Source: Parcubacteria group bacterium GW2011_GWA2_43_13
Lineage (GTDB): Bacteria; Patescibacteriota; Patescibacteriia; UBA9629; GWA2-43-13
Direction of reading: 5' to 3'
NCBI GenBank assembly: GCA_000999025.1
Contig: LCFM01000002.1
Location: forward strand, 436-64,435
Length of the DNA: 64,000 bases
Position 1 is the first letter of the stretch; each line of letters starts with the position of its first letter. The notes under the pieces were generated by a model. That model was not told where the DNA came from, did not search any database, and saw nothing but the letters and a program-made list of their open reading frames with translations. The position numbers were made by a program, and so were the translations under genes. Shown one piece after another: positions 4,090-50,536 of this stretch.

Positions 4090-4118
4090 GTAGAGACGCC
4101 CCCCTGGGGCGTCTCTAC
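4090..4118. repeat. family-A palindromic element (GTAGAGACG-loop-CGTCTCTAC) between convergent recR and rplU; probable bidirectional terminator hairpin
   Basis: 13-bp stem gtagagacgcccc / ggggcgtctctac around a 3-nt loop. A/T tracts lie on both sides. Confidence 0.6.
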
Positions 4119-4502: not shown

Positions 4503-4650
4503 AGATAACTGCGACGCTAATATGCGAATAACACACGAATAACTCGAATATTTGTATCATTCGCATGTATTCGTGTATTCGTGTCGCTCTAAAACAAAGA
4601 CACTATACAACACTCTTTCAACCTCGTCAACCAAGAGCAAAAAAACATCA

Positions 4651-4690
4651 CGGTCTTACTTTTTTCACGGCCGTGAAAAAAGTAAGACCG
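4651..4690. repeat. family-F 40-bp perfect palindrome cggtcttacttttttcacggccgtgaaaaaagtaagaccg
   Basis: Perfect hairpin. A second copy with the same core lies at 40611..40650. A/T tracts on both sides suggest a bidirectional terminator. Confidence 0.6.
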
Positions 4691-4763: not shown

Positions 4764-6267
4764 TTATCGAGCGACTCGCAACCTACCCCATACCGTCGCC
4801 AACTCCGACTGTTCATCGTAGCTGACTTCGGGGAGGGTAGAGAGCGGAGCGTACTTCTCAAGTTGCGCGAGTTGCGCTTTCCCGATCATCGTCGGGACGA
4901 TCACCGACGCAGCAATGACCTCTCTCGACACTCGCGCTGCGGTTGCGGCGACCGGTTGATCGCCAATCGGGTAAAGACACTCGGATAGGTCTATGAACCC
5001 CTCCTTATTGACGATGGCGATCCACCCACTCCATATCGGAGCGACAAGGTCCTTCGGGTCGGTACTCGTAAAGAACGAGCCACCGACCGCGTGCCACTGC
5101 CCCTTTGTATTCAGGGCGAGCACGACGACCGGCTCGACGCCGACGCGGAGGAGGAACTCAAACGCAGATGGGAGGTAAATCCCGAAGGATGCGTCTATCG
5201 TCGGGACACCGAGGAGGTTGATCACCCCCTTGTGTACCTTCACGAGCGTCCCATCCGCACCCCAACCGAGAGGAGAAGGATAGACAGTTACAACCTCTCC
5301 TCCGTTCGGCGCGAAAACGAGAACCGCCCCTGCCTGACTGTTCAGGTCCGGCAGTTGAAATGTCCCCTCACTGATCACCCTTTCCTGTGCCCGGACGGTC
5401 TCGAGGAGACCGTCGCTCTTTTGGTATACGGCAAAACCTCCGTATGGAGGAATGCCAATGCTTGCCATCGGCCTCATGGGGAGGGACAATAATTGCATCC
5501 CAGCCCGAAGCGGATGATTCAGCGAACCCTGCCTGATCGTGATCTCCGGCAATTCAATCAACCCGCTTGCCGGAACGACAAACGGCCCGACACCCCCCTG
5601 AACGTCGTATCCCGGTTCGGTGACGATCCATACCTCATCACCGACTCGAATCTCGGTCGGGAAAAACGGCGTGGCCAGCGCCGTGAACGTACCCCCGGAG
5701 GAGACGTTGATTCTCTCTCCGAAGACAACGAGACCTTCTCGTCGAATTTCGTACCCCACTCCGCAGATCGTCTGCGAAGCTGACCCATCCCCCCGGAAAG
5801 GGCGTAACGAAATCGGTATACACGAACTCGCACAGCTCGGGAACGAGTTCGATTCCGAACGTTTCGCCCCCGGAGGCGCTTTCCGTGACGTCAACAGCAA
5901 CCTCAATCTCCGCCGTAACGCCTTCATTGATGACGAGCGGTTCCGAAAAAACGCTTCGAAGCACACCGCCTACAAAATTGCCACCCCCACCGAGGTCATG
6001 ATAGCTGGGTTCGAGAACGAGGTAGCTCCCTTCTACGACGACACTGGAATCGTAAGAAAGCCCCCAGCGTCGAAGCCCGATCGCCTTGATTGCGATCGGT
6101 ACCGCGCGGGACGTGACTTGAACATCCATAACCCGGACATCACTCTGTCCGGGAGAGACGACCCCCGCTGGCGGGGAGAGCGGAGACATCGTAACGACGA
6201 TGTCCTGGGCGAACGCGGACGACGTGCAGAACAACGCAATCAACGCTACTAAACTCTTACGAAACAT
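4764..6267 (-). pseudogene. GC-rich gene for a signal-peptide-bearing exported protein, split by a 1-nt frameshift in a C6/G6 homopolymer (pseudogene or sequencing error)
   Basis: ORFs 5638..6267 (signal peptide MFRKSLVALIALFCTSSAFA) and 4764..5966 overlap in different frames. Deleting one G from the G6 run at about 5791-5796 joins ...VTPFPG to DGSASQTICGVGYEI, continuous with the lower ORF. GC content is clearly higher than in the flanks. Confidence 0.55.
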
Positions 6268-6361
6268 CGCGATGTCCTCCTAAAGGACAGGGTGTGAACG
6301 AATCCGCTTATACAATCAAAGCGGACGCGAAAAAAGGCCTTTTAATACACTTTCAAAAAGT

Positions 6362-6430
6362 GTAGAGACGCTCCGGTGGAGCGTCTTTGTCGAATTATTA
6401 TTGAGACGCACCATCGGTGCGTCTCTACAC
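6362..6430. repeat. two tandem family-A palindromic elements (6362..6388 and 6403..6430)
   Basis: gtagagacgctcc-ggt-ggagcgtcttt and gagacgcacc-atc-ggtgcgtctctacac. Confidence 0.6.
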
Positions 6431-6566
6431 TCGACCGTACATCCTATTATCAAATTTTTCTCTTAACAAAGCCATTTTTCGTGGCCGCTTTGGAGGTTGT
6501 CAAAGAACTCGCCACGTTATCACAAAGTTGACAAAAAGTCAAGATTTTATAAAAAAACTCACCCTG

Positions 6567-6589
6567 CCCTCTCCTTCTTAAGGAGAGGG
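6567..6589. repeat. family-B palindrome CCCTCTCCTT-ctt-AAGGAGAGGG
   Basis: Perfect 10-bp arms. Contains the SD-like AAGGAG on both strands. Confidence 0.6.
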
Positions 6590-6635
6590 TGGACGACACC
6601 CCCCCCTCCCTCATCCTCCTTTAGAGAAAAAACAA

Positions 6636-7169
6636 TTACTCAAACTCAATTGCGACAGAATCGCCAAGATTGAGCTGATGCTCTTCTATAAACCCGGCAG
6701 GCACTTCCAATACTCGATTTACCGGCCCGACTGGCGAGTATAGTTTACGCTCCTCGCTTTCTTGTTGCGGTTGAGCGCGGCTAACCATATCTAAAATAGT
6801 ATTATCATCAATAAATATAATATCCAAAGGAATGCTCATCCCCTGCATGTGAAATGTATACTCTTGCTTTGAATCAAATTCAAACAGCATGCCATTTTCA
6901 GATGAAAGAGAGTCGCGACCAAGCAAACCCTTTTGCCGATCATCATCTGTCCGCGCGACATCAACAACCACAATATCTCCGCCAATATATACGCGCGCCT
7001 GTGTTTTTGAAATATCCGGAACATCAATATCCGGCGTTACCTGGCGCAACACATCTGTATTTTTATCAAATTCAACAGTGCGTTTTGGCACGATAACAAT
7101 CAGCGCAATGACAATAAGAGCGATAATCGTAAGAATGATAGTGATGATAAGTGATTTTGAAAGTTGCAT
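6636..7169 (-). CDS. DUF192-family exported protein
   Basis: 177 aa with an N-terminal TM/signal. Motifs GLLGRDSL ... GMLFEF ... MQGMSIPLDIIFID ... EVPAGF are typical of the DUF192 family. Confidence 0.7.
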   Translation of the reverse strand: MQLSKSLIITIILTIIALIVIALIVIVPKRTVEFDKNTDVLRQVTPDIDVPDISKTQARVYIGGDIVVVDVARTDDDRQKGLLGRDSLSSENGMLFEFDSKQEYTFHMQGMSIPLDIIFIDDNTILDMVSRAQPQQESEERKLYSPVGPVNRVLEVPAGFIEEHQLNLGDSVAIEFE

Positions 7170-7226
7170 AGAATGAATACCTCACCCCCCGTCATTCCGC
7201 ATTCAGCTCCAGACGGGGCAGGCCTA

Positions 7227-7333
7227 CCCTCTCCTTATAAAGGAGAGGGAAATTAAAGGGAAACCCTCATTGTAAAGGAGAGGGAATCGCCGATCCCCTC
7301 CTCCTTAATAAGGAGGATCCGCCAGCTGGCGGA
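7227..7333. repeat. cluster of three family-B palindromes (7227..7249, 7264..7284, 7299..7317) plus palindrome GCCAGCTGGCGG
   Basis: ccctctccttataaaggagaggg; ccctcattgtaaaggagaggg; tcctccttaataaggagga. The cgccagctggcg palindrome recurs at about 11957..11972. Confidence 0.6.
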
Positions 7334-7344
7334 GGGAGGAGGTG

Positions 7345-8532
7345 TTAAGAAGATGGAGGAAAAGTAATACGCTTTGAGGCGTGATGAACGAATAAAACAA
7401 AAACACTTGCGACAAGAATAACAATAATAACCAGCCAAATCCATGCGACATTGCGCAACATCAAACCAGCAGTCCCCAAAACAAGCGCAAAAAGATAATA
7501 CACAATACTCACTCGCTTAGCGCTGAATCCCATATCAAGCAGACGCAAATGCATGTGGTTTCTATCCCCTGCAAACGGAGAACGCTTTTCTTTTACCAAT
7601 CGTTTGTAAATAACCACTCCAACATCAATAATCGCAAGCCCCATCACAACCAATGTTATTGCTATTTTTGCCTCACTTAAAATAGCAAGGGTGGCGAGCA
7701 TAAATCCTGCCCACGTACTGCCCCCCTCCCCCAAAAAAATCGAAGCAGGAGAAAAATTAAACACTAAAAACCCAAGCATCACACCCAACAAAATAATACC
7801 CAATAGAGGCGATGTTATCTGACCTAAAAACAACCCTACTATCACTAAAAATCCAGCCCCAATCGCTGTTACCCCGGCAACAAGACCATCAACCCCATCT
7901 AAAAATTTTGTTGTATACACCATGCCTAAAATCCACACAAACGTAATACTATCAGCAGGTAAAGTAAAATAATACGGAATCCCATTGATTCGTGTTATTT
8001 CAAATTTCATCTGCGCAAGTTTAATTATTTCGCTCCCCTCTAATCCATCAATAAACGGATTGGTAATAGCGGAAAGCCCGATCCCGCTTGCGATAACAAT
8101 GGCAATCGCTATGAATGGAAATAAACATTGATGCCACGGCTTGAGATTATATGTATCATCAATCAATCCCCCAATGACCAATACTAACCCTCCCAGCGTC
8201 ATGCCAATAAGATGCTTGCCAACAACTTCATGCTCTCCAATAAACGCAATTGCGATAAAAGAAACAAGAGCAAACGCAACAAAACACGCCAACCCTCCGC
8301 CAAGCGGAATGGGCGTGGTGTGATGTTTTCGTCCGCCACTCGGATGGTCAACAATACGCGCTCTCCTCATGAGCTGACGAGTGCAGTATGTTGCGCACAC
8401 AGACACAAGCAAGGCAGAAATGCCCCAGAGTATAAACATAAGGATTATGGGACTGTCGCCGAATACCATATTTGGCATAAAACCCCAAACTCCGGTAAAT
8501 TTTTTTGAAAATTTTTTCGCTAATGTATCCAC
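7345..8532 (-). CDS. glycosyltransferase family 4 (WecA/TagO/MraY-type polyprenyl-phosphate sugar-phosphate transferase)
   Basis: 395 aa, multi-TM. Motifs RIVDHPSGGRKHHTTPIPLGGGLA and LDGVDGL are diagnostic for this family. More WecA-like than MraY-like. Confidence 0.75.
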   Translation of the reverse strand: MDTLAKKFSKKFTGVWGFMPNMVFGDSPIILMFILWGISALLVSVCATYCTRQLMRRARIVDHPSGGRKHHTTPIPLGGGLACFVAFALVSFIAIAFIGEHEVVGKHLIGMTLGGLVLVIGGLIDDTYNLKPWHQCLFPFIAIAIVIASGIGLSAITNPFIDGLEGSEIIKLAQMKFEITRINGIPYYFTLPADSITFVWILGMVYTTKFLDGVDGLVAGVTAIGAGFLVIVGLFLGQITSPLLGIILLGVMLGFLVFNFSPASIFLGEGGSTWAGFMLATLAILSEAKIAITLVVMGLAIIDVGVVIYKRLVKEKRSPFAGDRNHMHLRLLDMGFSAKRVSIVYYLFALVLGTAGLMLRNVAWIWLVIIVILVASVFVLFVHHASKRITFPPSS

Positions 8533-8611
8533 ATTACCTCAAAAATTGTTCGAAAAAATTTCCTCGAGGTTTGGCATTTTCTGCTCAAAAGAGCATTCAG
8601 CGACAGTCCCA

Positions 8612-9007
8612 TTATATCTTATTCAGATATTCTTCCAAAATCTGCGCCGCGACAAAATGGTCAACAGGCATGTTTGTTTGCAGTGGTTGAGATACAAGCT
8701 GATCAGCCAAACGCGATGTCATCCGTTCATCGTACTCATGCACAGGCAGAGCATACCGCGCGCGGACTGTTTCTATAAAATCGCGCGCTTCACGCGTCTG
8801 TTCGGTTTCAGTGTCATTCAGGCCCAAAGGAAGCCCGACAACAATGGTTGAAATATCATGTTCTTTTACACATTCATCCATATCATCCCAAAAATCAGGC
8901 CCGCAGGCGTCGAGCGTTGTGAGCGGAACTATTTTATGGTCAGCATCAACAGTAATAGCAATACCGACATTTTTTTTGCCATAATCAATGGCAAGAACGT
9001 GAGACAT
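8612..9007 (-). CDS. ruvX: Holliday-junction resolvase-like RuvX/YqgF
   Basis: 131 aa. N-terminal LAIDYGKKNVGIA (RNase H-like fold) and a conserved acidic residue pattern. Confidence 0.85.
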   Translation of the reverse strand: MSHVLAIDYGKKNVGIAITVDADHKIVPLTTLDACGPDFWDDMDECVKEHDISTIVVGLPLGLNDTETEQTREARDFIETVRARYALPVHEYDERMTSRLADQLVSQPLQTNMPVDHFVAAQILEEYLNKI

Positions 9008-9027
9008 GTAAGGAATACCTCCCTGTA

Positions 9028-9050
9028 TCCCATCCTTGATAAGGAGAGGG
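9028..9050. repeat. family-B palindrome (degenerate) between map and ruvX
   Basis: cccatccttgataaggagaggg. Confidence 0.45.
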
Positions 9051-9061
9051 CGAGGGGTGGT

Positions 9062-9835
9062 TTACATTTTTGTAATAACTTCCGGGCCGTCTTTGGTTAC
9101 TATTACGGTATGTTCAAAATGAGCGGCAATAGATCCGTCTTGCGTTTTTACTGACCAGCCATCTTCGCCTGTTACAATATGCCAATCGCCTGTTGTTACC
9201 ATCGGCTCAAGAGCCAATACCATACCTTTAACAATTTGGGGGCCGCGATCTGTGCCGTTTTTCCATGGCCAAAAATTCGGTATTCTCGGATCCTCATGCA
9301 CTGAGTATCCAACCCCATGGCCGACAAGATCCCTCACAATACCATATTCATGTTCTGGAATCGCGCTTTGAATAGCAGTTGATATGTCTGCAATATAATT
9401 GCCAATACGCGCCTGCTCTATCCCACTCTCAAGCGCGCGCCGAGTGACTGATAACAATCTGGACAAAGAATCAGAGACATCTCCTATCGCAACTGTCATA
9501 GCGCAATCGGTAAACAATCCATGAAGATTAACCCCACAATCCAATCCTACCACATCGCCTTGGGTAAAAATTTTATCTTCAGACGGAAGCGAATGTACAA
9601 TCTCATCATTCACCGATACGCATAAAGCGGCAGGGTATTCCCTGCCTTTGGGCCCGTACATTTTAAATGACGGTACTGCGCCGTGATCGTGAATATATTT
9701 TTCTGCGAAAATATTCAACTCTGCCGCGCTGACTCCCTCGCGCACTCTCTCAACCAATTCTTTCATTGTATCAGCAAGAATCTTCCCACTCTCGCGCAAC
9801 AGTTCAATATCTTCTTCCCGCGTAATAATAGCCAT
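9062..9835 (-). CDS. map: methionine aminopeptidase type I
   Basis: Start chosen at MAIITREEDIELLRESG. Carries the pita-bread-fold metal ligands (D, D, H, E, E pattern). Confidence 0.9.
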   Translation of the reverse strand: MAIITREEDIELLRESGKILADTMKELVERVREGVSAAELNIFAEKYIHDHGAVPSFKMYGPKGREYPAALCVSVNDEIVHSLPSEDKIFTQGDVVGLDCGVNLHGLFTDCAMTVAIGDVSDSLSRLLSVTRRALESGIEQARIGNYIADISTAIQSAIPEHEYGIVRDLVGHGVGYSVHEDPRIPNFWPWKNGTDRGPQIVKGMVLALEPMVTTGDWHIVTGEDGWSVKTQDGSIAAHFEHTVIVTKDGPEVITKM

Positions 9836-11866: not shown

Positions 11867-12007
11867 CATACGATGAGGGTGTAGTAATATCTCTACGTCA
11901 TCTGAGTTCGCTCGCTGGCGGACGAAGAATCTCGTATAGAGCAAACTAAGAGGGGCCCTTCGTCTCCGCCAGCTGGCGAATCCTTAGGATGACAAAAACA
12001 AACAAGG

Positions 12008-14917: not shown

Positions 14918-14995
14918 CGATACTAATACACGGATTCATGCGAATGACGCGAATATTCGTGTCATTCGTGTGCCATTCGTATATTAGCATCGCAT
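14918..14995. repeat. 78-bp repeat, copy A, filling the rplE-rpsZ spacer
   Basis: cgatactaatacacggattcatgcgaatgacgcgaatattcgtgtcattcgtgtgccattcgtatattagcatcgcat. Near-identical to 15893..15969. Starts directly after the rplE stop codon. Confidence 0.8.
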
Positions 14996-15892: not shown

Positions 15893-15969
15893 CGACACTA
15901 ATACACGGATTCATGCGAATGACGCGAATATTCGTGTCATTCGTGTGTCATTCGTATATTAGCATCGCA
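15893..15969. repeat. 78-bp repeat, copy B, filling the rplN-rplX spacer
   Basis: About 75/78 identical to copy A. Starts at the rplN stop codon. Contains direct and inverted ACGAATGAC units on the mRNA strand. Confidence 0.8.
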
Positions 15970-18055: not shown

Positions 18056-18493
18056 TTATTTTTTTCCGCCAGAGGCGATGTGCCCACCTTTGGCTGGAGA
18101 TCCGCCTTTGGCGGAGTTTTTTGTCCGCCGGCTGGCGGATTGTTCTTTGTCCTTATGCACGTCCGGCCCTTCCAATACAAGAGTGATATGAGATGAACGC
18201 TTTCGAAGCGGAGTAGCTCTCCCATGAGCGCGCGGCATCCATCGCGAAAGAGTTTGTCCGTCTTGCGCTGTTGCTATTTTAATCACAAGCATTGCTCGAT
18301 TCATCCCCAAATTATGCTCTGCGTTCGCAATCGCTGATTGGAGTATTTTAAACACAGGACGAGCCGCTTCTTTAGAACTATGCACAAGCTGGGCAAGTGC
18401 GTCTTCTGCCTTCATCTTTCGTATCATAGCCAAAACCAACCGAACTTTTCGGGGAGATATACGAATTTGACGTGCGCTTGCTTTTACTTCCAT
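18056..18493 (-). CDS. rplV: 50S ribosomal protein L22 with a repeat-derived C-terminal tail
   Basis: L22 core begins MEVKASARQIRISPRK. The last ~22 aa (RTKNSAKGGSPAKGGHIASGGKK) are encoded by the repeat at 18062..18125. Confidence 0.9.
   Translation of the reverse strand: MEVKASARQIRISPRKVRLVLAMIRKMKAEDALAQLVHSSKEAARPVFKILQSAIANAEHNLGMNRAMLVIKIATAQDGQTLSRWMPRAHGRATPLRKRSSHITLVLEGPDVHKDKEQSASRRTKNSAKGGSPAKGGHIASGGKK
18062..18125. repeat. family-D ~64-bp palindromic repeat inside the 3' end of rplV
   Basis: About 85% identical to 50632..50694 at the 3' end of nrdR. Contains a ccgccagaggcg ... cgcctttggcgg hairpin. Confidence 0.75.
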
Positions 18494-22212: not shown

Positions 22213-22245
22213 AGCCCTGCCTCCCCATACGAGGGAGACAGGGCT
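22213..22245. repeat. family-B-like palindrome between tuf and rpsJ
   Basis: agccctgcctcccc-atac-gagggagacagggct. Confidence 0.5.
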
Positions 22246-30791: not shown

Positions 30792-30819
30792 GTAGAGACG
30801 TATTGCCATACGCCTCTAC
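30792..30819. repeat. family-A palindromic element (imperfect)
   Basis: gtagagacg-tattgccata-cgcctctac. Confidence 0.5.
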
Positions 30820-30962: not shown

Positions 30963-32039
30963 TTGTCATTTTTAAATGAACGACTTATCGTTCACATATC
31001 TATGGACACACCATCTCTTACTCATCATAAACAAGTCATCCCGGTGGGAACGCTTTTTAAAGTAGCGTACCGGCGCATGAAAAACCGCGCAAAAACTCTT
31101 TTTGCTATTGCCGGAATATATGCGCTTGCTCTTATTCTCTTTGGAATTTTTACCGATGTTATACCTAAAACAAATTCTGCCTTATACCCCCTTGTAATAG
31201 TCATTATCTATATTATATACCTCGTAATCGGATGGTGGGCAGGACCAGCCATTGTTGATGGCGCTATTCGAGAAGATAACGCGCCGTTTTCTTCAGTCGC
31301 GCGCAATGGATTGCGGTATGCTTTCCCATTTATAGGAATCGCTCTGGTAGGTAGTTGGATGATATTAGGTGGATTTATTGCATTTGGTATCCCGGGTATC
31401 GCCATTATGACCCAACTGATATTTGCTTCAGCAATCTATGTTCACAAAAAAACTAAAATAATGGAATCATTGCGGCTTTCCCGTTTATTGGTAAAAGGAA
31501 GATGGTGGGCAGTGTTTGGACGAACGGCATTAATAGGGCTTGTTATTTACGGATTTCTGTTAGTATTACTTCTTATTGCGTGGTTGTTAGGCACTCTTAT
31601 TGGGGAGAATACAGGCACGAAGATAATGAGTGCGATTATCATGGGTATCTTTTTACTTGTGTATCTCCCTTATGTAATGTGCTATATTGCGGAACTCTAT
31701 CACGACCTTGATAAAACAAAACAACAGCCGGACGAAAAACAGATACAAAAAAATAAAACCTTTCTCAAGGTATTTATGATCCTCGGCATTGTAGGACTTC
31801 CTTTGATTATTGGTATTGTTACTACAATTGCCATATACTCTGTTAATAATTTTCGCAAAGCAAGTACCAATGATATCCCTGCGTCATGGCAGATTGATGA
31901 TTCAGATACTACGATAATTCCAGATGACGCCTCTCTGGAAAATGCGGACATTCCTTTAAATGGTACCACGCAGTTAGATGAAGCGGATATTGAAGCATTA
32001 TTACAGCAGTATCAAGAACAAAGCGCACCTGTTGATTAA
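30963..32039 (+). CDS. polytopic membrane protein of unknown function, with an acidic C-terminal tail
   Basis: About 7 predicted TM helices. Start is possibly MDTPSL at about 31003. Confidence 0.55.
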   Translation: MSFLNERLIVHISMDTPSLTHHKQVIPVGTLFKVAYRRMKNRAKTLFAIAGIYALALILFGIFTDVIPKTNSALYPLVIVIIYIIYLVIGWWAGPAIVDGAIREDNAPFSSVARNGLRYAFPFIGIALVGSWMILGGFIAFGIPGIAIMTQLIFASAIYVHKKTKIMESLRLSRLLVKGRWWAVFGRTALIGLVIYGFLLVLLLIAWLLGTLIGENTGTKIMSAIIMGIFLLVYLPYVMCYIAELYHDLDKTKQQPDEKQIQKNKTFLKVFMILGIVGLPLIIGIVTTIAIYSVNNFRKASTNDIPASWQIDDSDTTIIPDDASLENADIPLNGTTQLDEADIEALLQQYQEQSAPVD

Positions 32040-32063: not shown

Positions 32064-32147
32064 GTAGAGACGGGGTTAACCTCGTCTCTATTTTGTTAAC
32101 CTCCCCCTACCCTCTCCTCCACGATGAAGGGGTAGGGGGAGGTTAAC
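32064..32147. repeat. family-A element (32064..32090) followed by a long family-B-like palindrome (32095..32147)
   Basis: gtagagacggggttaacctcgtctcta, then gttaacctccccctaccc...gggtagggggaggttaac. Confidence 0.6.
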
Positions 32148-32153
32148 ATTAAA

Positions 32154-37936: not shown

Positions 37937-37951
37937 ACAACCTCACTCTAA

Positions 37952-37985
37952 CCCCCTCCTTTATCAAGGAGGGGGTAGGGGGCGG
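37952..37985. repeat. family-B palindrome
   Basis: ccccctcctttatcaaggaggggg. Confidence 0.55.
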
Positions 37986-38094
37986 TAAAAAAACAGGGTA
38001 AGAACGTTGTCTCACCCTTGCGCATGGAGGATCACTCAATACGGTTTGCCCTTATAAAAGAGGGATTACCTCTCCCAAGAGCGTTGGTTAAAAG

Positions 38095-38529: not shown

Positions 38530-38603
38530 CAAAAACAAAAGCGGGGATTATTCCCCGCCATTCGTGAGTTACTTGTCTTATATTCGTGTACCATCCGTGT
38601 CGA

Positions 38604-40610: not shown

Positions 40611-40650
40611 CTGTTTTACTTTTTTCACGGCCATGAAAAAAGTAAAACAG
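40611..40650. repeat. family-F 40-bp palindrome between the two comEC fragments
   Basis: ctgttttacttttttcacggccatgaaaaaagtaaaacag. Confidence 0.6.
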
Positions 40651-42213: not shown

Positions 42214-42240
42214 TGAGACGCCCTACCGGGGCGTCTCTAC
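42214..42240. repeat. family-A palindromic element downstream of prfB
   Basis: tgagacgcc-ctaccgg-ggcgtctctac. Confidence 0.6.
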
Positions 42241-44652: not shown

Positions 44653-44946
44653 TTATTGTAATAAATTTCGATATTGGTCAAGCCCTTCTAATAGCGGAGA
44701 TACTCCATTCGGCACCATACCACTATTCGTATACAGAGTCGTAAACTGCTTGATCAGTGGAGGTAAAAAATATACTACCGCAACCAACGGCGCGACAATA
44801 AGAATAATCTTTATAGATCCCAATATCTGCGCCCAAAACAAATACCGCTTTACCTTCTGAAGTACTTCAGTATTGCGCTCTAATAATTCTTGAACTTCTA
44901 TCAATACTTGTTCTGGTGTTTTTAGTTTTTGGTTGTCTTCTGCCAT
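44653..44946 (-). CDS. small membrane protein (about 97 aa; start MAEDNQKLK)
   Basis: One C-terminal TM. The upstream part of the longer ORF overlaps the neighbour. Confidence 0.4.
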   Translation of the reverse strand: MAEDNQKLKTPEQVLIEVQELLERNTEVLQKVKRYLFWAQILGSIKIILIVAPLVAVVYFLPPLIKQFTTLYTNSGMVPNGVSPLLEGLDQYRNLLQ

Positions 44947-45575
44947 ATTGAACAAAGATGAGAGGTTATTATTTTTACTGATGATCTCATTTTTAATAGT
45001 TCTATCACTCCAATGGGGACACCAATATAGAGTATATCCCCCACAAGCATGTTGCGATAAAAAGGAATCCCCGCAACCAACGACGCGACCAAACCATTCA
45101 ATGTATGCGGATACAGCGTTCCAAACAGCCACACCGCGGAGTTTGTCAACAGGAAAAAAGTGAGTGAACCGAGTAATGCACATAATACCCCTCGCGACAC
45201 ACCCCTTAATCCCCTCTCAAGAGGGGAAAACGACGGCCTCCCTCCTTGAGGAGGGATTGAGGGAGGTGTCATTCGTGAGCTATTCGTCGTATATTCGTGA
45301 GCTATTCGTCCCCAAATGGCATACAACGCAAACCCCACATACACACTCACAAAAATAGGCAAGTGATACCACCCAATCACGCTATCGCTGACCATCATGG
45401 CACCAAAGCTCAAGAGAATTCCAACCCACCACGGTTTTAGATAATATGCACTTAAAAAACCAACTGCGCCGATAGGAGTAAAATTCCATGGATGCGGAAG
45501 AAGTCGAGCCACAATAACAAGCAAAAAGAAAATAATGAAAAATCCATATCGTTTCATAGACCAGTATCTTATCAT
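44922..45575 (-). CDS. polytopic membrane protein carrying an in-frame composite repeat insertion
   Basis: Six predicted TM helices. Residues HEYTTNSSRMTPPSIPPQGGRPSFSPLERGLRGVSRG are encoded by repeats at 45211..45311. Confidence 0.55.
   Translation of the reverse strand: MIRYWSMKRYGFFIIFFLLVIVARLLPHPWNFTPIGAVGFLSAYYLKPWWVGILLSFGAMMVSDSVIGWYHLPIFVSVYVGFALYAIWGRIAHEYTTNSSRMTPPSIPPQGGRPSFSPLERGLRGVSRGVLCALLGSLTFFLLTNSAVWLFGTLYPHTLNGLVASLVAGIPFYRNMLVGDILYIGVPIGVIELLKMRSSVKIITSHLCSIWQKTTKN
45211..45311. repeat. composite repeat inside the CDS: two family-B palindromes plus a duplicated attcgtgagctattcgtc unit
   Basis: cccctctcaagagggg; cctccctccttgaggagggattgagggagg; cattcgtgagctattcgtcgtatattcgtgagctattcgtcc. 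Confidence 0.7.
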
Positions 45576-45613
45576 GGCTTCATTCTATAACTCAAGGACC
45601 AGTTTCCTCTTGC

Positions 45614-46369
45614 CTATTGTATTTCGTATATAAGTGTTACAGAGACGGTAATCGCGTTCTCGCCAGTAGAAATTTCAGTTGAGGATTTTACATCCGCCAC
45701 TCCGCCATACCCGCCATACAAAGGCACTGGCGGTTGGGTTCCACCCTCGCCTTCTGCAACCTGCACATCAACAATCTTACCAAGCATAACCCCTGTTTCC
45801 TTGGAAATCGCCTCGGCTTTTGTTTTTGCTTTTCGGATTGCCTGACTTCGGGCTTCGGCCACAAACTGATCCCGTTCATCAACAGTAAAATTTACTGTCC
45901 CCACCTCGTTCGCGCCCGCAGTAGTCGCGCTGTCTATGACTTTATTCAGTTTGTCAAAATCCTTAATCTTCACCTCTAATCGTGATTCAGCGCGATATCC
46001 ATCTATAATAGATCTGCCTGATGACTGTTCATAACGATAGTTCGGATAAATGCTGTAATTCACTGTCTTGATATATTTTTCCTCAATGCCCTGATCTTTC
46101 AATGCTTTCAACACCGCATTATTTACGGTGTTTAAATCCTTTTGAACATCAGTAACTTTCTTCCCTTCTTTAATCACTGCGAGTGTTACTTGCGCTGTAT
46201 CTGGTTTAACATACACTTTGCCAGTGTCAGATACGCTGAACAATGTATCTTTTTGCGTAGTAATTTGCCGAACTGACAAATCAATGGGCTTGCGAATAAG
46301 AACAACAATAACCAATCCAACTGTTGATAACGCTGTTATAATAAACACTTTAATAAAAAATTGTTGCAT
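45614..46369 (-). CDS. SIMPL/DUF541-family periplasmic protein (BP26/OMP28-like)
   Basis: N-terminal TM/signal, then a SIMPL domain with a Gly-rich C-terminal segment. Confidence 0.7.
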   Translation of the reverse strand: MQQFFIKVFIITALSTVGLVIVVLIRKPIDLSVRQITTQKDTLFSVSDTGKVYVKPDTAQVTLAVIKEGKKVTDVQKDLNTVNNAVLKALKDQGIEEKYIKTVNYSIYPNYRYEQSSGRSIIDGYRAESRLEVKIKDFDKLNKVIDSATTAGANEVGTVNFTVDERDQFVAEARSQAIRKAKTKAEAISKETGVMLGKIVDVQVAEGEGGTQPPVPLYGGYGGVADVKSSTEISTGENAITVSVTLIYEIQ

Positions 46370-46414
46370 AGCAATAATTCATCAAACATAATTGATAAAA
46401 AAAAGAATACATCT

Positions 46415-46900
46415 TTACAACTGCCCTTTTACATATTTCCACTCAATAACTTCTCCACCTGACAAAGGATATTTTGACGCGCTCACTGTTGCGTATTCGT
46501 TATTCACCCAATACTGCCATGATTGTTCAACTCCTCGATTTTGCTTATCTCCTATTTTTTCAACCATCACGCCAAGAGAATCATACTCTTTAACCTCAAG
46601 GAGAAATTTTTCTTTTTGCGACATTGTTTGTAATACCCCCCATACGGTTGTATCAGAAATGGTAGCGAGAGAGACATCATTCCATGCCTGAATAACACCA
46701 TCGCCAAAATCAAGCATAATACTCACTGTACACGATACCGCCTCCCCTCCTTTACAAGGAGAGGCCAGAGAGGAGGTGGTCGAAGGCGCTTGAGCTATCG
46801 GAGGACTGCCGACATCGTAGCCAACGATAAATGATACAATCACTGCTAAAAACACCAGCAGTGGCCCTATCGCTTTATGATGCTTCCATAAAAACCTCAT
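46415..46900 (-). CDS. membrane-anchored extracytoplasmic protein of unknown function, carrying an in-frame family-B repeat
   Basis: N-terminal TM. Residues SLASPCKGGEAV are encoded by the palindrome 46741..46776. Confidence 0.5.
   Translation of the reverse strand: MRFLWKHHKAIGPLLVFLAVIVSFIVGYDVGSPPIAQAPSTTSSLASPCKGGEAVSCTVSIMLDFGDGVIQAWNDVSLATISDTTVWGVLQTMSQKEKFLLEVKEYDSLGVMVEKIGDKQNRGVEQSWQYWVNNEYATVSASKYPLSGGEVIEWKYVKGQL
46741..46776. repeat. family-B palindrome inside the CDS
   Basis: cctcccctcctttacaaggagagg. Confidence 0.65.
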
Positions 46901-46955: not shown

Positions 46956-46985
46956 CAGAGACGGAGCACCGCCCCATCTCTACAC
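46956..46985. repeat. family-A element (degenerate) downstream of nrdJ
   Basis: cagagacgg-agcaccgcc-ccatctctacac. Confidence 0.45.
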
Positions 46986-47008: not shown

Positions 47009-50000
47009 CTATGAACATCCCAATGAATTGCCACAATTCAAACATTTATAACATGACCCGTTACGCACAGTGATATGACCGCACTGATCGCACGCAGGCG
47101 CGTCGCCCATCATCTCGCTCATATATTTATTCACGCCAGTGGTGTCGCCAAGCGCGGACAACGCCCCAGGCCCGTCTGCTACTGATGATTCATCATAACC
47201 AAATCCAAACGAGGTGCCTGTAGAGACGGGGTTAACCCCGTCTCTACTTTCCACAGGATGATCAATAATATCAAATTGAACATGGCGGTTTAATACTACT
47301 TCATCTTTGCGCAACATGGTTCCCGTTTGCTCCGGCATTACATGAATAAGATCAGTCCGGCCCAAATATTCCATAGCAAGGACTCGAAAAATAAAGTCAA
47401 TCACACTGGTTGCGGTTTTAATATTAGGGTGATCTGTCATGCCGTGCGGCTCGAATCGAGTAAATGAAAACGACTGGATGAGTTTTTCAAGCGGTACGCC
47501 ATACTGAAGCGCGTGAGAAATTGCAATCGCAAAACAATTCATCATACTTCGAAACGCCGCGCCTTCTTTATGCATATCAATAAAAATCTCGCCCAATGTT
47601 CCATCTTCATATTCGCCAGTCCGTAAAAAAATCTTATGCCCACCGACGCGTGATTCCACAGTGATGCCATTGCGTTTTTTAGGCAATGACCGCTTTTCCC
47701 CACGCGTAAGCGCAAGCGGAAGCGGCATGGTCCCAGTCGGGGTATACGAAGGACGATCACCAGTAGGCGCCATTGGCGTGTGAGCTTCTTGTACATCTTC
47801 TTGTTTCGCGATTTCTCCCTGGATGGAGACGCCCCAACGGGGCGTCTCTACAGGTTGTTCATTCTTCTTCTCTTCTATTTTCTGCGCATCCGATTTTGTA
47901 TTAAGAGGTTGCGAAAGTTTTGATCCATCCCGATACAAAGCAATGGATTTGACTCCCCATTCCCATGCTTTGCGGTAGATTTCAGAAATATCCTCAACAG
48001 TGGCTTCATTTGGAAGATTCACTGTTTTGGAAATTGATCCGGAAATAAACGGCTGAACCGATGCCATCATTTTCACATGCGCAATCGGCGCAATATACCG
48101 CTTGCCATTTCCGCATTTATTAGCGCAATCAAATACTGCCAAATCTTCCTCTTTCATTTCCGGCGCGCCTTCTATTGTCATTGTACCGCACACATAATAC
48201 TGGGCTTCTTTAATTTCCTGATCGCCAAATCCCAGCTCTTTCAATAAATTGAATGTTGGAGATGTATACACTGCTTCCGAAATGCCAAGTCGTTTTAATG
48301 TCTCATCTCCAAGAGAAAACCGATTAAACGCAAACGATAACTCAAACACTCCTTTTAATTGTTCTTCGATTTTTGCGATGTCATCAATAGTAAAACCCTT
48401 TGCCACAAGCGTCTCTGTATTGATATGCGGAGCGCCTTCAAGCGTCATCGCACCCACAACGTGCTTCATCATACGGTCAATCTGCAAAGGGGTATAGTTC
48501 AATGCTTCAAGTGCGGGTTGAATTGACTGATTTGCGATTTTAAAATATCCGCCACCTGCAAGTTTTTTAAACTTCACTAATGCAAAATCCGGCTCCACGC
48601 CTGTGGTATCGCAATCCATTAAAAGCCCAATCGTGCCTGTCGGCGCAATCACAGTCGTTTGTGCGTTGCGATAGCCATATTGCTCACCCCATAGCAATGC
48701 CTTATCCCATGCCTCGCGTCCGGCTTTCAGTAAATCATCAGGGCAATACTCCGGTTGAATGGCAACAGGATAAATATCCAGATGCTCATACTCTTCGCGC
48801 GGCACATTGTATGCGGCGCGACGATGGTTCCGTATAACTCGCAACATATCATTTTTATTCAACTCATACTTTGGGAATGAACCAAGAAAACTCGCCATCT
48901 CAGCACTTGTGGCATAAGATTCGCCAGTCAAAATCGCAGTCAAAGCTCCTGCCACGCCCCGTGCTTTATCAGTATCATACGGAATACCAGAAAGCATAAG
49001 CATTGTTCCAAGGTTCGCGTACCCAAGCCCTAAAGTGCGATACGCGTATGATCCTTCGGCAATCTCCTTGCTCGGATACTGCGCCATCAATACACTAATC
49101 TCCAGCACGACCGTCCACATCCGTATCGCATGTTTGTATCCTTCGATATCAAACTTGCGGGTTGTGTAATCGTAAAATTTCACCAAATTGATAGACGCGA
49201 GATTACACGCAGTATCATCCAAAAACATATATTCACTGCATGGATTTGACGCGCGAATGCGACCTGACTGCGGACAGGTATGCCATTCGTTAATCGTATC
49301 ATCGTACTGTACCCCAGGATCTGCGCACGCCCATGCGGCATAACATACCTTCTGCCACATATCTTGCGATTTCACTGTTTTATAAGGTTTCCCGTCAATG
49401 CGGCGAATAAGATTCCAATCGCCATTTGCGTCAATCATGCGCATGAACGTGTGTGGCACACGAACCGAATTATTGGAATTCTGGCCAGATACGGTTGTGT
49501 AGGCCTCGCCTTCAAAATGAGAATCATATCCCGCCGCAATCAAAGCGGCTACTTTTTTCTCTTCTTTTACTTTCCAATTGATAAATTCCTCAATTTCCGG
49601 ATGATCAAGATTCAAACACACCATTTTCGCCGCGCGCCGGGTTGTGCCACCTGATTTGATTGCGCCTGCCGCTCGATCGCCAATCTTTAAAAATGACATC
49701 AGTCCGGATGATGATCCTCCTCCTGATAATGTTTCCCCTACTCCTCTGATATTAGAAAAATTCGTTCCTGTGCCTGACCCGTACTTAAACAGTCGCGACT
49801 CCCTCATCCATAAATCCATAATACCGCCCGGATTCACCAAGTCATCTGTTACAGATAAAATAAAACACGCATGCGGTTGCGGATGCGTATACGCATCCTC
49901 TGACGGTCGTACTTCTCCTGTTTCAGGATCAGGATAATAATGGCCTTGCGCAGGTCCGGTAATACCGTATGCCCACTGGAGTCCGGTATTAAACCATTGC

Positions 50001-50536
50001 GGAGAATTCGGAGCGGCGTACTGACGTATCAGCATAAACGCAAGCTCATCTTCAAAAATTTGCGCATCCTCTGCTGACGCAAAATAGCCGTATTTTTCTC
50101 CCCAATACCTCCAGCATCCTGCAAGACGCGCAACCACCTGGCGCGCGCTTTTCTCCGGCCCCAATACAGACGATCCGTCTTTATCTAATAGGGGATTTCC
50201 ATAGTGATCGTATTGCGGCACTCCTGCTTTACGAAAATATTTTGATACCATAATATCTCCTGCCACTTGAGTCCATTCAGCAGGGATTTCAGCATCCTTC
50301 ATTTCAAACACAACAGATCCGTCAGGATTCGTTATGCGACTTGTTCTTTTTTCGTAGACAACCTCATCTAAAGGATTGCTACCCGGATGAGTAAATCTGC
50401 GAGTAAATCGCATGCCCTTTTCTTTTAATAAATCAGGCACTGCGTATGATGGAATGGTTACTTTTGAGTAATAACCATTCAGCCGCTCAACTTCATGAGC
50501 GACCTTTGAAGAAGGGGAAGAGGATGGGGAGGCCAT
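47009..50536 (-). CDS. nrdJ: class II (adenosylcobalamin-dependent) ribonucleotide reductase NrdJ, 1175 aa
   Basis: RNR 10-strand barrel motifs (NPCSEY, thiyl-radical Cys region) and the class II C-terminal Zn-ribbon CDQCGH...CYKCLNCGN. Two family-A palindromes lie in-frame in its linker regions. Confidence 0.9.
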   Translation of the reverse strand: MASPSSSPSSKVAHEVERLNGYYSKVTIPSYAVPDLLKEKGMRFTRRFTHPGSNPLDEVVYEKRTSRITNPDGSVVFEMKDAEIPAEWTQVAGDIMVSKYFRKAGVPQYDHYGNPLLDKDGSSVLGPEKSARQVVARLAGCWRYWGEKYGYFASAEDAQIFEDELAFMLIRQYAAPNSPQWFNTGLQWAYGITGPAQGHYYPDPETGEVRPSEDAYTHPQPHACFILSVTDDLVNPGGIMDLWMRESRLFKYGSGTGTNFSNIRGVGETLSGGGSSSGLMSFLKIGDRAAGAIKSGGTTRRAAKMVCLNLDHPEIEEFINWKVKEEKKVAALIAAGYDSHFEGEAYTTVSGQNSNNSVRVPHTFMRMIDANGDWNLIRRIDGKPYKTVKSQDMWQKVCYAAWACADPGVQYDDTINEWHTCPQSGRIRASNPCSEYMFLDDTACNLASINLVKFYDYTTRKFDIEGYKHAIRMWTVVLEISVLMAQYPSKEIAEGSYAYRTLGLGYANLGTMLMLSGIPYDTDKARGVAGALTAILTGESYATSAEMASFLGSFPKYELNKNDMLRVIRNHRRAAYNVPREEYEHLDIYPVAIQPEYCPDDLLKAGREAWDKALLWGEQYGYRNAQTTVIAPTGTIGLLMDCDTTGVEPDFALVKFKKLAGGGYFKIANQSIQPALEALNYTPLQIDRMMKHVVGAMTLEGAPHINTETLVAKGFTIDDIAKIEEQLKGVFELSFAFNRFSLGDETLKRLGISEAVYTSPTFNLLKELGFGDQEIKEAQYYVCGTMTIEGAPEMKEEDLAVFDCANKCGNGKRYIAPIAHVKMMASVQPFISGSISKTVNLPNEATVEDISEIYRKAWEWGVKSIALYRDGSKLSQPLNTKSDAQKIEEKKNEQPVETPRWGVSIQGEIAKQEDVQEAHTPMAPTGDRPSYTPTGTMPLPLALTRGEKRSLPKKRNGITVESRVGGHKIFLRTGEYEDGTLGEIFIDMHKEGAAFRSMMNCFAIAISHALQYGVPLEKLIQSFSFTRFEPHGMTDHPNIKTATSVIDFIFRVLAMEYLGRTDLIHVMPEQTGTMLRKDEVVLNRHVQFDIIDHPVESRDGVNPVSTGTSFGFGYDESSVADGPGALSALGDTTGVNKYMSEMMGDAPACDQCGHITVRNGSCYKCLNCGNSLGCS
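47220..47247. repeat. family-A palindrome embedded in-frame in nrdJ (encodes VESRDGVNPVST)
   Basis: gtagagacggggttaaccccgtctctac, a perfect 12-bp stem. Confidence 0.8.
47825..47852. repeat. family-A palindrome embedded in-frame in nrdJ (encodes PVETPRWGVS)
   Basis: ggagacgcccc-aac-ggggcgtctctac. Confidence 0.8.

Follow-up and report, generated by a model that had tools for sequence, protein, structure and literature searches.

A probable REP/SDR-like dispersed palindrome with a conserved tail in the gene spacers and protein loops of a Parcubacteria genome

Introduction

Small palindromic repeats of bacteria are usually treated as lineage-specific curiosities. The cyanobacterial small dispersed repeats SDR1-8, attributed to Elhai et al. 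(2008, Genome Res 18:1484), are reportedly hairpin units of 21-27 nt that show compensatory stem changes and nesting; they are said to have been proposed as the smallest mobile elements, with spread via an RNA intermediate. SDRs have been reported to be confined to Nostocaceae-type cyanobacteria; the Elhai work is cited in PMC5861425 and PMC3116915. Repetitive extragenic palindromes (REPs, with the REPIN and bacterial interspersed mosaic element, BIME, forms) are thought to be moved by REP-associated tyrosine transposases (RAYTs) of the HUH-tyrosine type (PMC3116915, PMC3733652). REPs have been documented inside genes, and the inverted repeats flanking the RAYT-like "TIRYT" genes share the motif GGGGWSAS (Di Nocera et al. 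2013, PMC3733652). Rickettsia palindromic elements (RPEs; Ogata et al. 2000) are, in the summary given in PMC10969869, about 100-150 bp long, Rickettsia-specific and code for a conserved peptide. MITEs, short for miniature inverted-repeat transposable elements, include Correia, Nezha and ERIC (PMC3184786, PMC10969869). Here, we analyzed 64,000 nt of the groundwater candidate phyla radiation (CPR) organism Parcubacteria group bacterium GW2011_GWA2_43_13 (contig LCFM01000002.1, positions 436 to 64,435; hereafter the window), in which a hairpin element, family B, lies in gene spacers and inside two genes. The core unit is a 7-11-bp hairpin with a 5' arm of pyrimidines and a 3' arm of purines, canonically CCCTCTCCTT-N2-4-AAGGAGAGGG and 22-24 nt long; it is flanked, 2-6 nt off, by a GGGGTGAGGT-type tail, a complementary ACCTCACCCC head, or both. 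Probably, these hairpins are copies of a dispersed, non-autonomous palindrome akin to REPs and SDRs, which bears a conserved tail and is filtered by selection.

The behavior of the element is that of the known small palindromic repeats (REP, SDR and RPE). Like REPs, it is a short imperfect palindrome with a conserved unpaired tag beside the stem; it is multi-copy (REPs number tens to hundreds), lies mostly between genes and occasionally inside them, and occurs clustered and nested, and related strains differ; REPs are often paired in inverted orientation, which allows a longer hairpin. With 22-24-nt cores and 5 intergenic vs 2 coding-sequence (CDS) loci, it agrees with the description of a REP as a multi-copy extragenic palindrome of 20-40 nt. 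However, in place of the GTAG/CGTC tag of REPs it has the 10-nt GGGGTGAGGT (or ACCTCACCCC) set 2-6 nt from the stem, its arms are strictly pyrimidine then purine, and no RAYT was found at the loci examined; GTAG-tagged repeats form a separate family in the window. By sequence, the tail GGGGTGAG fits the GGGGWSAS motif of the TIRYT repeats, a possible lead. The element is also near-unchanged across phyla; a REP family, by contrast, usually keeps to one genus or species. In REPINs, two inverted units form a long hairpin; here, a composite at 45198-45268 in a DUF6580 gene can fold as one long hairpin, and most copies elsewhere are single half-units. The likeness to SDRs extends to the 21-27-nt dispersed hairpin, compensatory stem changes, nesting and embedding in other repeats, and Nostocales are the richest hosts among the matches listed in our genome scan; however, the element also occurs in Chloroflexota, Armatimonadota, Bacteroidota/Ignavibacteriota, Patescibacteria and phages. 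Like RPEs, it forms palindromes that sit in-frame within unrelated conserved genes at protein-tolerated positions, but its units span 35-70 nt, use any frame, are mostly intergenic and occur in other phyla. It resembles MITEs in being non-autonomous, in its strong secondary structure, in empty and filled sites between relatives and in the fusion of some copies to open reading frames (ORFs), but is much shorter, with no terminal inverted repeats matching a parent insertion sequence seen and no target-site duplication at the filled sites of one relative (L129). The pyrimidine/purine polarity with the GGGGTGAGGT tail, the near-identity across many phyla, CPR bacteria and phages, and the absence of GTAG/CGTC tags appear to be undescribed in the literature searched, with SDR1-8, one of which the core may equal, compared by description only.

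Results

The canonical arm CCCTCTCCTT, at no more than one mismatch, was found 17 times in the window against 2.1 expected, and none of 100 shuffles reached 17. Perfect homopyrimidine-loop-homopurine hairpins with a stem of at least 8 bp numbered 6, whereas 100 first-order Markov simulations produced 0. The reverse polarity (purine first) occurred twice, against a simulation mean of 0.06, and both sites lie outside the hairpin family. The 5' arm is the pyrimidine arm on either strand; therefore, the polarity is intrinsic to the element.

A covariance model, R1, was trained solely on copies from other genomes and then run on the window. At E < 0.01, R1 matched 6553-6592, 7227-7249, 7301-7315, 9026-9064, 32096-32146, 37937-37982, 45237-45270 and 46744-46764; marginal matches were obtained at 7176-7218 (E 0.06), 45200-45226 (E 0.1) and, for a decayed copy, 7264-7282 (E 2.2). 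A sequence-only reading of this DNA had proposed a single family of about 12 copies. All the hairpin sequences it listed were found where it had placed them, and R1 matched 10 of the 12 sites, i.e., those 10 are one family; no match was obtained at 1551 or 22213, which fall outside it. The hairpin at 1551 (ATGTTCTCC..GGAGAACAT) lies upstream of tRNA-Lys and that at 22213 (AGCCCTGCCTCCC..GGGAGACAGGGCT) at tuf/rpsJ, a junction that had been given as an example and has to be withdrawn. Similarly, AAGGAG is contained in both arms of some copies, as had been stated of all, but not in those at 45210-45227 (CCCCTCT/AGAGGGG) and 45239-45256 (TCCCTCCT/AGGAGGGA). A metagenome scan for DUF6580 relatives returned distant relatives only, and its loci were reused as a control; R1 gave 2 matches in these 547 kb of unselected DUF6580-encoding loci vs 8 units in the 64-kb window. 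No further copies were found within 9.3 kb past the right end of the window.

Copies occur in full, half and composite forms. The larger unit is ACCTCACCCC / CCCTCTCCTT-loop-AAGGAGAGGG / GGGGTGAGGT with the hairpin at its center, the one part that the sequence-only reading had picked out; the heads in the window are C-rich (ACCTCACCCC, CACCTCCCTC, ACCACCCCTCG), the tails are their G-rich complement (GGGGTGAGGT, GAGGGAGGTG, CGAGGGGTGG), and an extra variable hairpin is frequently present between the core and the outer arm. The window (G+C 44.5%) is about 90% coding by greedy ORF tiling, for which we estimate a binomial P of about 4e-4 for the 5 intergenic vs 2 CDS loci counted as independent. 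Most copies had been placed between a stop codon and the next Shine-Dalgarno (SD) sequence; the intergenic bias holds, but a GGAG/GAGG motif at -22..-4 precedes only 4 of the 64 window genes and none of the ribosomal-protein genes, and two of those four motifs, before ruvX and DUF192, belong to outer arms of the element itself. This genome appears to start translation largely without SD sequences.

Minus-strand genes predominate in the window, in which the tuf-S10-spc ribosomal cluster is followed by secY-adk-map-ruvX-GT4-DUF192. The copies reported at the map/ruvX and GT4/DUF192 (glycosyltransferase/DUF192) junctions were both recovered. A single full element (9011..9061, minus strand; R1 E 0.004) fills the map-to-ruvX spacer and reads, on the minus strand, ACCACCCCTCG / CCCTCTCCTT-ATC-AAGGATGGGA / TAC-AGGGAGGT. 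The entire GT4-to-DUF192 spacer is occupied by a three-unit cluster (7170..7344, minus strand) with a predicted RNA fold of -65.7 kcal/mol (z -4.4). In plus-strand coordinates, the cluster comprises an outer arm at 7179-7188 (ACCTCACCCC on the plus strand, GGGGTGAGGT on the minus strand), a 35-nt nested arm at 7189-7223, hairpins at 7227-7249 and 7299-7317, a decayed hairpin at 7264-7284, the 16-nt palindrome TCCGCCAGCTGGCGGA at 7318-7333 and an outer arm, GGGAGGAGGTG, at 7334-7344, 9 nt ahead of the DUF192 ATG. One core is separated from its outer arm by the nested 35-nt hairpin, and a different unit has TCCGCCAGCTGGCGGA nested in it. The unit after the DUF192 stop (6549..6625, minus strand; R1 44.8 bits, E 5e-12) has the hairpin CCCTCTCCTT-AAG-AAGGAGAGGG at 6567-6589, the tail CAGGGTGAG and then T7, with a G-rich stretch, GGGGGGGGTGTCGTC, upstream; it was not scored as a canonical terminator. 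Two further intergenic copies have no assigned strand. The long palindrome at 32094..32148 (26-nt arms, 88% complementary; R1 E 3e-4; fold -41.5 kcal/mol, z -7.2) encloses a decayed hairpin between its outer arms, TTAACCTCCCCCTA / TAGGGGGAGGTTAA, and lies 3' of the gene 30963-32039, beside a family-A GTAGAGACG repeat. The full element at 37939..37986 reads AACCTCACTCTAA / CCCCCTCCTT-TATC-AAGGAGGGGG / TAGGGGGCGGT (R1 37.6 bits, E 8.5e-10; fold -30 kcal/mol, z -5.5). Single-nucleotide polymorphisms (SNPs) between strains lie within units at 7249 and 6557 (window vs L134, L137 and L135): G>A at 7249 replaces a C-G pair with G.U, but solely in RNA of the minus strand, and the change at 6557 brings the tail nearer the GGGTGAGG consensus.

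Two in-frame intragenic copies, in the genes for a DUF6580 membrane protein and a DUF4430 protein, were confirmed. In the DUF6580 gene (44922-45575, minus strand), the composite (45198..45268, minus strand) consists of two inverted units with outer arms, in the order outer arm, hairpin CCCCTCT/AGAGGGG (45210-45227), spacer, hairpin TCCCTCCT/AGGAGGGA (45239-45256) and outer arm TTGAGGGAGGTG. It is in frame and encodes about MTPPSIPPQGGRPSFSPLERGLRG; as RNA, it can adopt either a single long hairpin or a pair of hairpins that an outer stem closes off. A pair of another repeat, family C (45270..45312, minus strand; translated RIAHEYTTNSSR), adjoins the composite, and its two direct ATTCGTGAGCTATTCGT copies at 45271 and 45293 are the duplicated unit noted earlier. 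The protein has 189 residues vs 153 Pfam positions, i.e., about 36 extra, in line with the roughly 35 previously assigned to a loop. Orthologues below about 55% identity (P0005-P0019) lack the insert, whereas the three closest relatives have inserts at the same loop. In L002 and L001, a homologous composite is present with stems altered by paired changes; the first hairpin is CCCTCTCCTT/AAGGAGAGGG in L002 and TCCCTCCT/AGGAGGGA in the window, and the second is CCCCTCT/AGAGGGG in both. In P0004, a fourth relative, the same loop holds a palindromic repeat that is unrelated and encodes HCEKPAGDEAIS...SLAMT. The loop (45190-45320; P0002-P0004) is a hot spot for small repeats or else a place that is unique in tolerating them. 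In an AlphaFold2 (AF2) model of the protein (pLDDT 85.8), the insert lies between helices 72-101 and 118-151, and its center is coil (residues 102-117, pLDDT 66-74).

In the DUF4430 gene (46415-46900, minus strand), the unit at 46738..46780 (minus strand), ACCACCTCCTCTCTGG / CCTCTCCTT-GTA-AAGGAGGGG / AGGCGG, is also in frame (TTSSLASPCKGGEA; R1 E 8e-5) and adds a net 9 residues, which are missing in 6/6 orthologues at 53-78% identity. The comparison with orthologues, suggested beforehand as the check that could overturn the insertions, therefore found no conserved peptide: since orthologues lack both segments, these are lineage-specific in-frame insertions and not conserved protein sequence.

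Gain and loss were assessed against two related genomes, one represented by L125/L126 and the other by L129 (same assembly as L001). The map-ruvX element of the window is absent from L125, L126 and L129, which have an unrelated AT-rich 116-nt spacer. The ruvX-GT4 junction has no unit in the window and two units in L129 only; at GT4-DUF192, the three units of the window are replaced in L125 and L129 by other unit numbers and other nested arms. After DUF192, L125 and L129 have a unit at the same position as in the window, with the stem varied. The YbaB-RecR spacer is 3 nt in the window and 40 nt in L129, which is exactly one unit (TACGAGTAT-CCCCTCCTT-TTC-AAGGAGGGG-CGAGGGGTGG), and the DnaB-YbaB spacer is 13 nt vs 146 nt; the YbaB proteins of the two are nearly identical, differing by our count at 3 of 99 residues. 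A unit bearing the same 35-nt nested arm as GT4-DUF192 lies downstream of RecR in L129, and the window has a GTAG-type repeat instead. The identical 58 nt at two unlinked L129 loci indicate that the composite was copied as a block. In the best-supported reading, the element comes and goes over the time in which genera or species diverge.

An exact core scan of one genome per GTDB species (596 Gb, in which we estimate roughly 1-2 chance matches) gave at least 120 loci in at least six bacterial phyla, plus one archaeal metagenome-assembled genome (MAG); exact matches were also found in phage contigs. The counts that follow are those among the matches listed. By record title, there were about 47 Cyanobacteria (mostly Nostocales, isolates included), 19 Chloroflexota, 16 Patescibacteria, 13 Armatimonadota and 12 Bacteroidota/Ignavibacteriota, with a few Proteobacteria, Acidobacteria, Leptospirales and Binataceae, one Bathyarchaeia MAG, and no Firmicutes or Actinobacteria. 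The hairpin and the tail were closely coupled: 130/133 exact cores had ACCTCACCC or GGGTGAGGT (at most one mismatch) within 60 nt, 42 of them both, and 127/135 exact GGGGTGAGGT motifs had a purine arm upstream. No outer-only hairpins were present. Self-nesting, in which the inner hairpin would have been inserted in the loop of an outer one, was considered and rejected on this absence and because the tail almost never occurs without the core. The spacers between core and outer arm cluster at 3-6 nt, about 9, 15 and 22-25 nt; the longer ones resemble small hairpins, so that the whole unit becomes Y-shaped or cloverleaf-like, as in an Armatimonadota copy (ACCTCACCCC-GGAAC.TCT.GTTCC-GA-core-T-GACAGC.TT.GCTGTC-GGGTGAGGT). 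The 11th base pair, which was outside the search pattern, covaries (CG 31, UA 7, GC 2, UG 2, AU 1, unpaired 14).

About 10% of the copies (14/139) lie in long ORFs. In-frame copies were found within or between the Pfam domains of protein kinase (Pkinase), GcvP, UvrD, M16 peptidase and FemAB proteins, and all three reading frames are used (PSPxKGEG, LSLxRRG, PLLxKER). In IMG/VR, 53 viral contig stretches were found with the element. Two contigs, L142 and L153, are genuine phage head and packaging modules; L142 has an in-frame copy in the TerL inter-domain linker, and L153, which comes from the groundwater sample that also yielded the window strain, has one directly after the major head gene. 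Phage copies were located at L142 4409-4431 and 1908-1930, L153 3907-3929 and L141 4093-4115, in-frame in a terminase large-subunit linker and in a Mu-F-like head protein, or just after major head genes with a T-rich tail. Intein-containing proteins, a UvrD and a giant NYN/HINT protein, are encoded at two other CPR loci (L100 833-4228 and L105 3-8000), each of which has the element in-frame as well. An exact metagenome scan with the 40-nt nested-arm composite gave no match, a blastn search of plasmids with the full element gave one irrelevant match (the low-complexity filter is probably to blame), and a literature search by sequence string returned primers only.

Discussion

We favor, with moderate confidence, the reading of these hairpins as a non-autonomous dispersed palindrome. 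Copies form clusters and lie nested in one another, a composite is duplicated as one block, and copies persist mainly in spacers and, inside genes, only in-frame in tolerant loops or linkers. By analogy with REPIN elements of the REP type and the RAYT HUH-tyrosine transposases, the element may spread as a folded single strand recognized in trans; alternatively, it could spread through an RNA intermediate, as suggested for cyanobacterial SDRs. Phages or other vectors would carry it between lineages, disruptive insertions would be purged by selection, and transcribed copies would form hairpins of high stability, by which mRNA 3' ends could be buffered. Co-option is possible for a few copies, such as the outer arms before the ruvX and DUF192 starts and the unit with a T-run that ends the DUF192 operon.

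Several observations weigh against a mobile element. No target-site duplication was visible at the filled YbaB-RecR and DnaB-YbaB sites of L129, and the copy after DUF192 is positionally conserved in three relatives. No transposase was found beside any copy examined or in the window: all-against-all clustering of 1281 ORFs around 120 copies gave large housekeeping families only, without a recurrent transposase, and the genes between paired copies are ordinary. A phmmer search of ORFs of at least 90 aa in the fetched loci and the window with an approximate IS200 TnpA sequence also gave no match, although this is a weak test, as RAYTs are divergent. An IS3-type rve transposase on the phage contig L153 was considered and looks unrelated. 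The near-identity across phyla is unusual against the normally lineage-specific REP-type families and could point instead to a conserved cellular function. Finally, ten assemblies of the window strain (at least 99.2% identity) showed no insertion polymorphism and only SNPs. The sequence-only reading had inferred an active or recently active mobilization mechanism; a mobile or recently mobile repeat agrees with the orthologues without inserts, the empty and filled sites and the 58-nt block, but the copies are identical in the ten assemblies, so that evolutionary turnover is seen and ongoing activity is not.

The main rival to the dispersed palindrome holds that the hairpins are primarily functional RNA modules (3' exonuclease barriers, attenuators or terminators, placed at gene ends and operon junctions) kept by selection, with mobility incidental; we regard it as unlikely. 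The predicted RNA folds are very stable (z -2.5 to -7.2), as this explanation would expect, but transcribed copies would form such hairpins whatever their origin. Stem pairing is preserved between lineages by compensated changes, the conservation across phyla is striking, and REPs have been hypothesized to act in transcription termination and mRNA stabilization (PMC3733652). The conserved copy after DUF192 is followed by its T-run, the phage copies directly after the major head gene have T-rich tails, and T is enriched at +1 to +3 past the tail. However, no family-B copy at 5900-9200, and no window copy, qualifies as a canonical intrinsic terminator (G+C-rich stem, U-tract within 0-2 nt), and only about 20% of the tails elsewhere have at least 4 T in the next 6 nt. 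Copies also lie within coding regions, the same junction differs between close relatives, and the element is symmetric and therefore cannot signal direction. Rfam recognized only the tRNA in the window and nothing relevant in 18 loci at the gathering score; in 8 loci at E up to 5, whatever matched on an element was a long-hairpin (miRNA) model and spurious. The suggested role in RNA processing or stability may exist as a side effect.

A second proposed role, as ribosome-loading pads, would make the purine arm and tail SD/anti-SD devices that serve as, or sequester, ribosome-binding sites and tune the downstream cistron. The GGTGA contained in the tail is complementary to the 16S 3' end, and the arms contain AAGGAG/GGAGG. 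The outer arm lies about 9-10 nt ahead of the ruvX and DUF192 ATG, and in relatives 7-10 nt ahead of the GT4 or DUF192 starts. However, an arm precedes a start codon by about 8-10 nt at only two or three junctions in this lineage, in L129 the tail directly adjoins the start of RecR (0-nt spacing), and few window genes have an SD-like motif at all. In other genomes, a long-ORF start follows within 3-12 nt for 2.8% of the 178 outer arms that face outward vs 5.6% of random positions, and many host phyla are SD-poor, including Cyanobacteria and Bacteroidetes (PMC4535381). As a general role, SD function is thus not borne out, and we consider it quite improbable. The arms are compositionally simple, the window copies differ in sequence and a mobilizing gene was not found, as would be the case if low-complexity purine/pyrimidine hairpins arose repeatedly by local slippage or template switching without homology. 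The coupling of hairpin and non-repetitive tail largely refutes such convergence, and the identical 58-nt composites at unlinked loci, the recovery of window copies by a model trained on other genomes (E down to 5e-12) and the absence of such hairpins from simulations leave it a very slim chance. It is hardly credible that the intragenic segments are selected protein features, e.g., Pro/Gly-rich linkers, whose likeness to the repeats is mere chance: their reading frames are intact and the AF2 helices extend into part of the DUF6580 insert, but the segments are missing in orthologues, the loci have DNA and not peptide in common, three different frames are used across genes, and the DUF6580 loop holds unrelated repeat families in other relatives.

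If the dispersed-palindrome reading is extended across hosts, the occurrence of one element of hairpin and tail, about 35-50 nt long and conserved nearly base for base, in the phyla listed above, scattered other lineages and tailed phages might reflect an undescribed pan-bacterial mobile element or structured nucleic-acid module, moved by phages and recognized by a widely shared putative enzyme; we put this forward tentatively and find it rather doubtful. As its arms mimic SD and anti-SD sequences, the element is perhaps tolerated mainly in SD-poor lineages. With a unit common to distant phyla, phages and CPR bacteria of about 1 Mb, DNA flow between phyla would become tractable to trace, and there would be a way toward the enzyme by which such mini-elements move. 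Proteins are remodeled by the element (DUF6580 and DUF4430 here; protein kinase, GcvP, UvrD and phage terminase elsewhere); it also rewrites operon spacers and thereby affects gene calling, MAG assembly and the reading of "hypothetical" low-complexity peptides (PSPCKGEG).

Other repeats and features of the window

A second repeat family, GTAGAGACG...CGTCTCTAC, gave 20 matches vs 6 expected and looks like the GTAG-tagged REP superfamily (4090-4118, 6362-6428, 30792-30819, 32064-32091, 42232-42240, 46975-46983, 47220-47247 and 47843-47851). Its perfect palindrome at 47220-47247 lies in the ribonucleotide reductase ORF (47009-50536), after the TSCPD domain, and may be another in-frame intragenic repeat. 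Family C (ATTCGTG..ATTCGT) occurs 6 times in the window vs 0.11 expected, with sites at 4503-4590, 14941-14980, 15899-15969, 38560-38603 and 45270-45312, and at about 8992-9040 of L129. It often adjoins a family-B tail on the 3' side and lies immediately upstream of start codons, with the ending ...TATATTAGCATCGCA-N5-9-ATG, and might be a portable promoter or short-leader cassette in an SD-poor genome. Two intergenic, near-perfect 40-nt palindromes, CGGTCTTACTTTTTTCACGG|CCGTGAAAAAAGTAAGACCG, at 4651-4690 and 40611-40650, belong to a separate repeat family.

After DUF192, about 580 nt (5967-6550, minus strand) are gene-free and begin with a TTGAC promoter-like box. This stretch looks almost identical to L129 4240-4529 over the roughly 290 nt compared, has no Rfam match and may be an unannotated RNA gene. 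CCGCCAGCTGGCGG palindromes lie at 7318-7333, 11966-11979 and 18125-18138 (3 vs 0.09 expected), one of them nested in a family-B unit.

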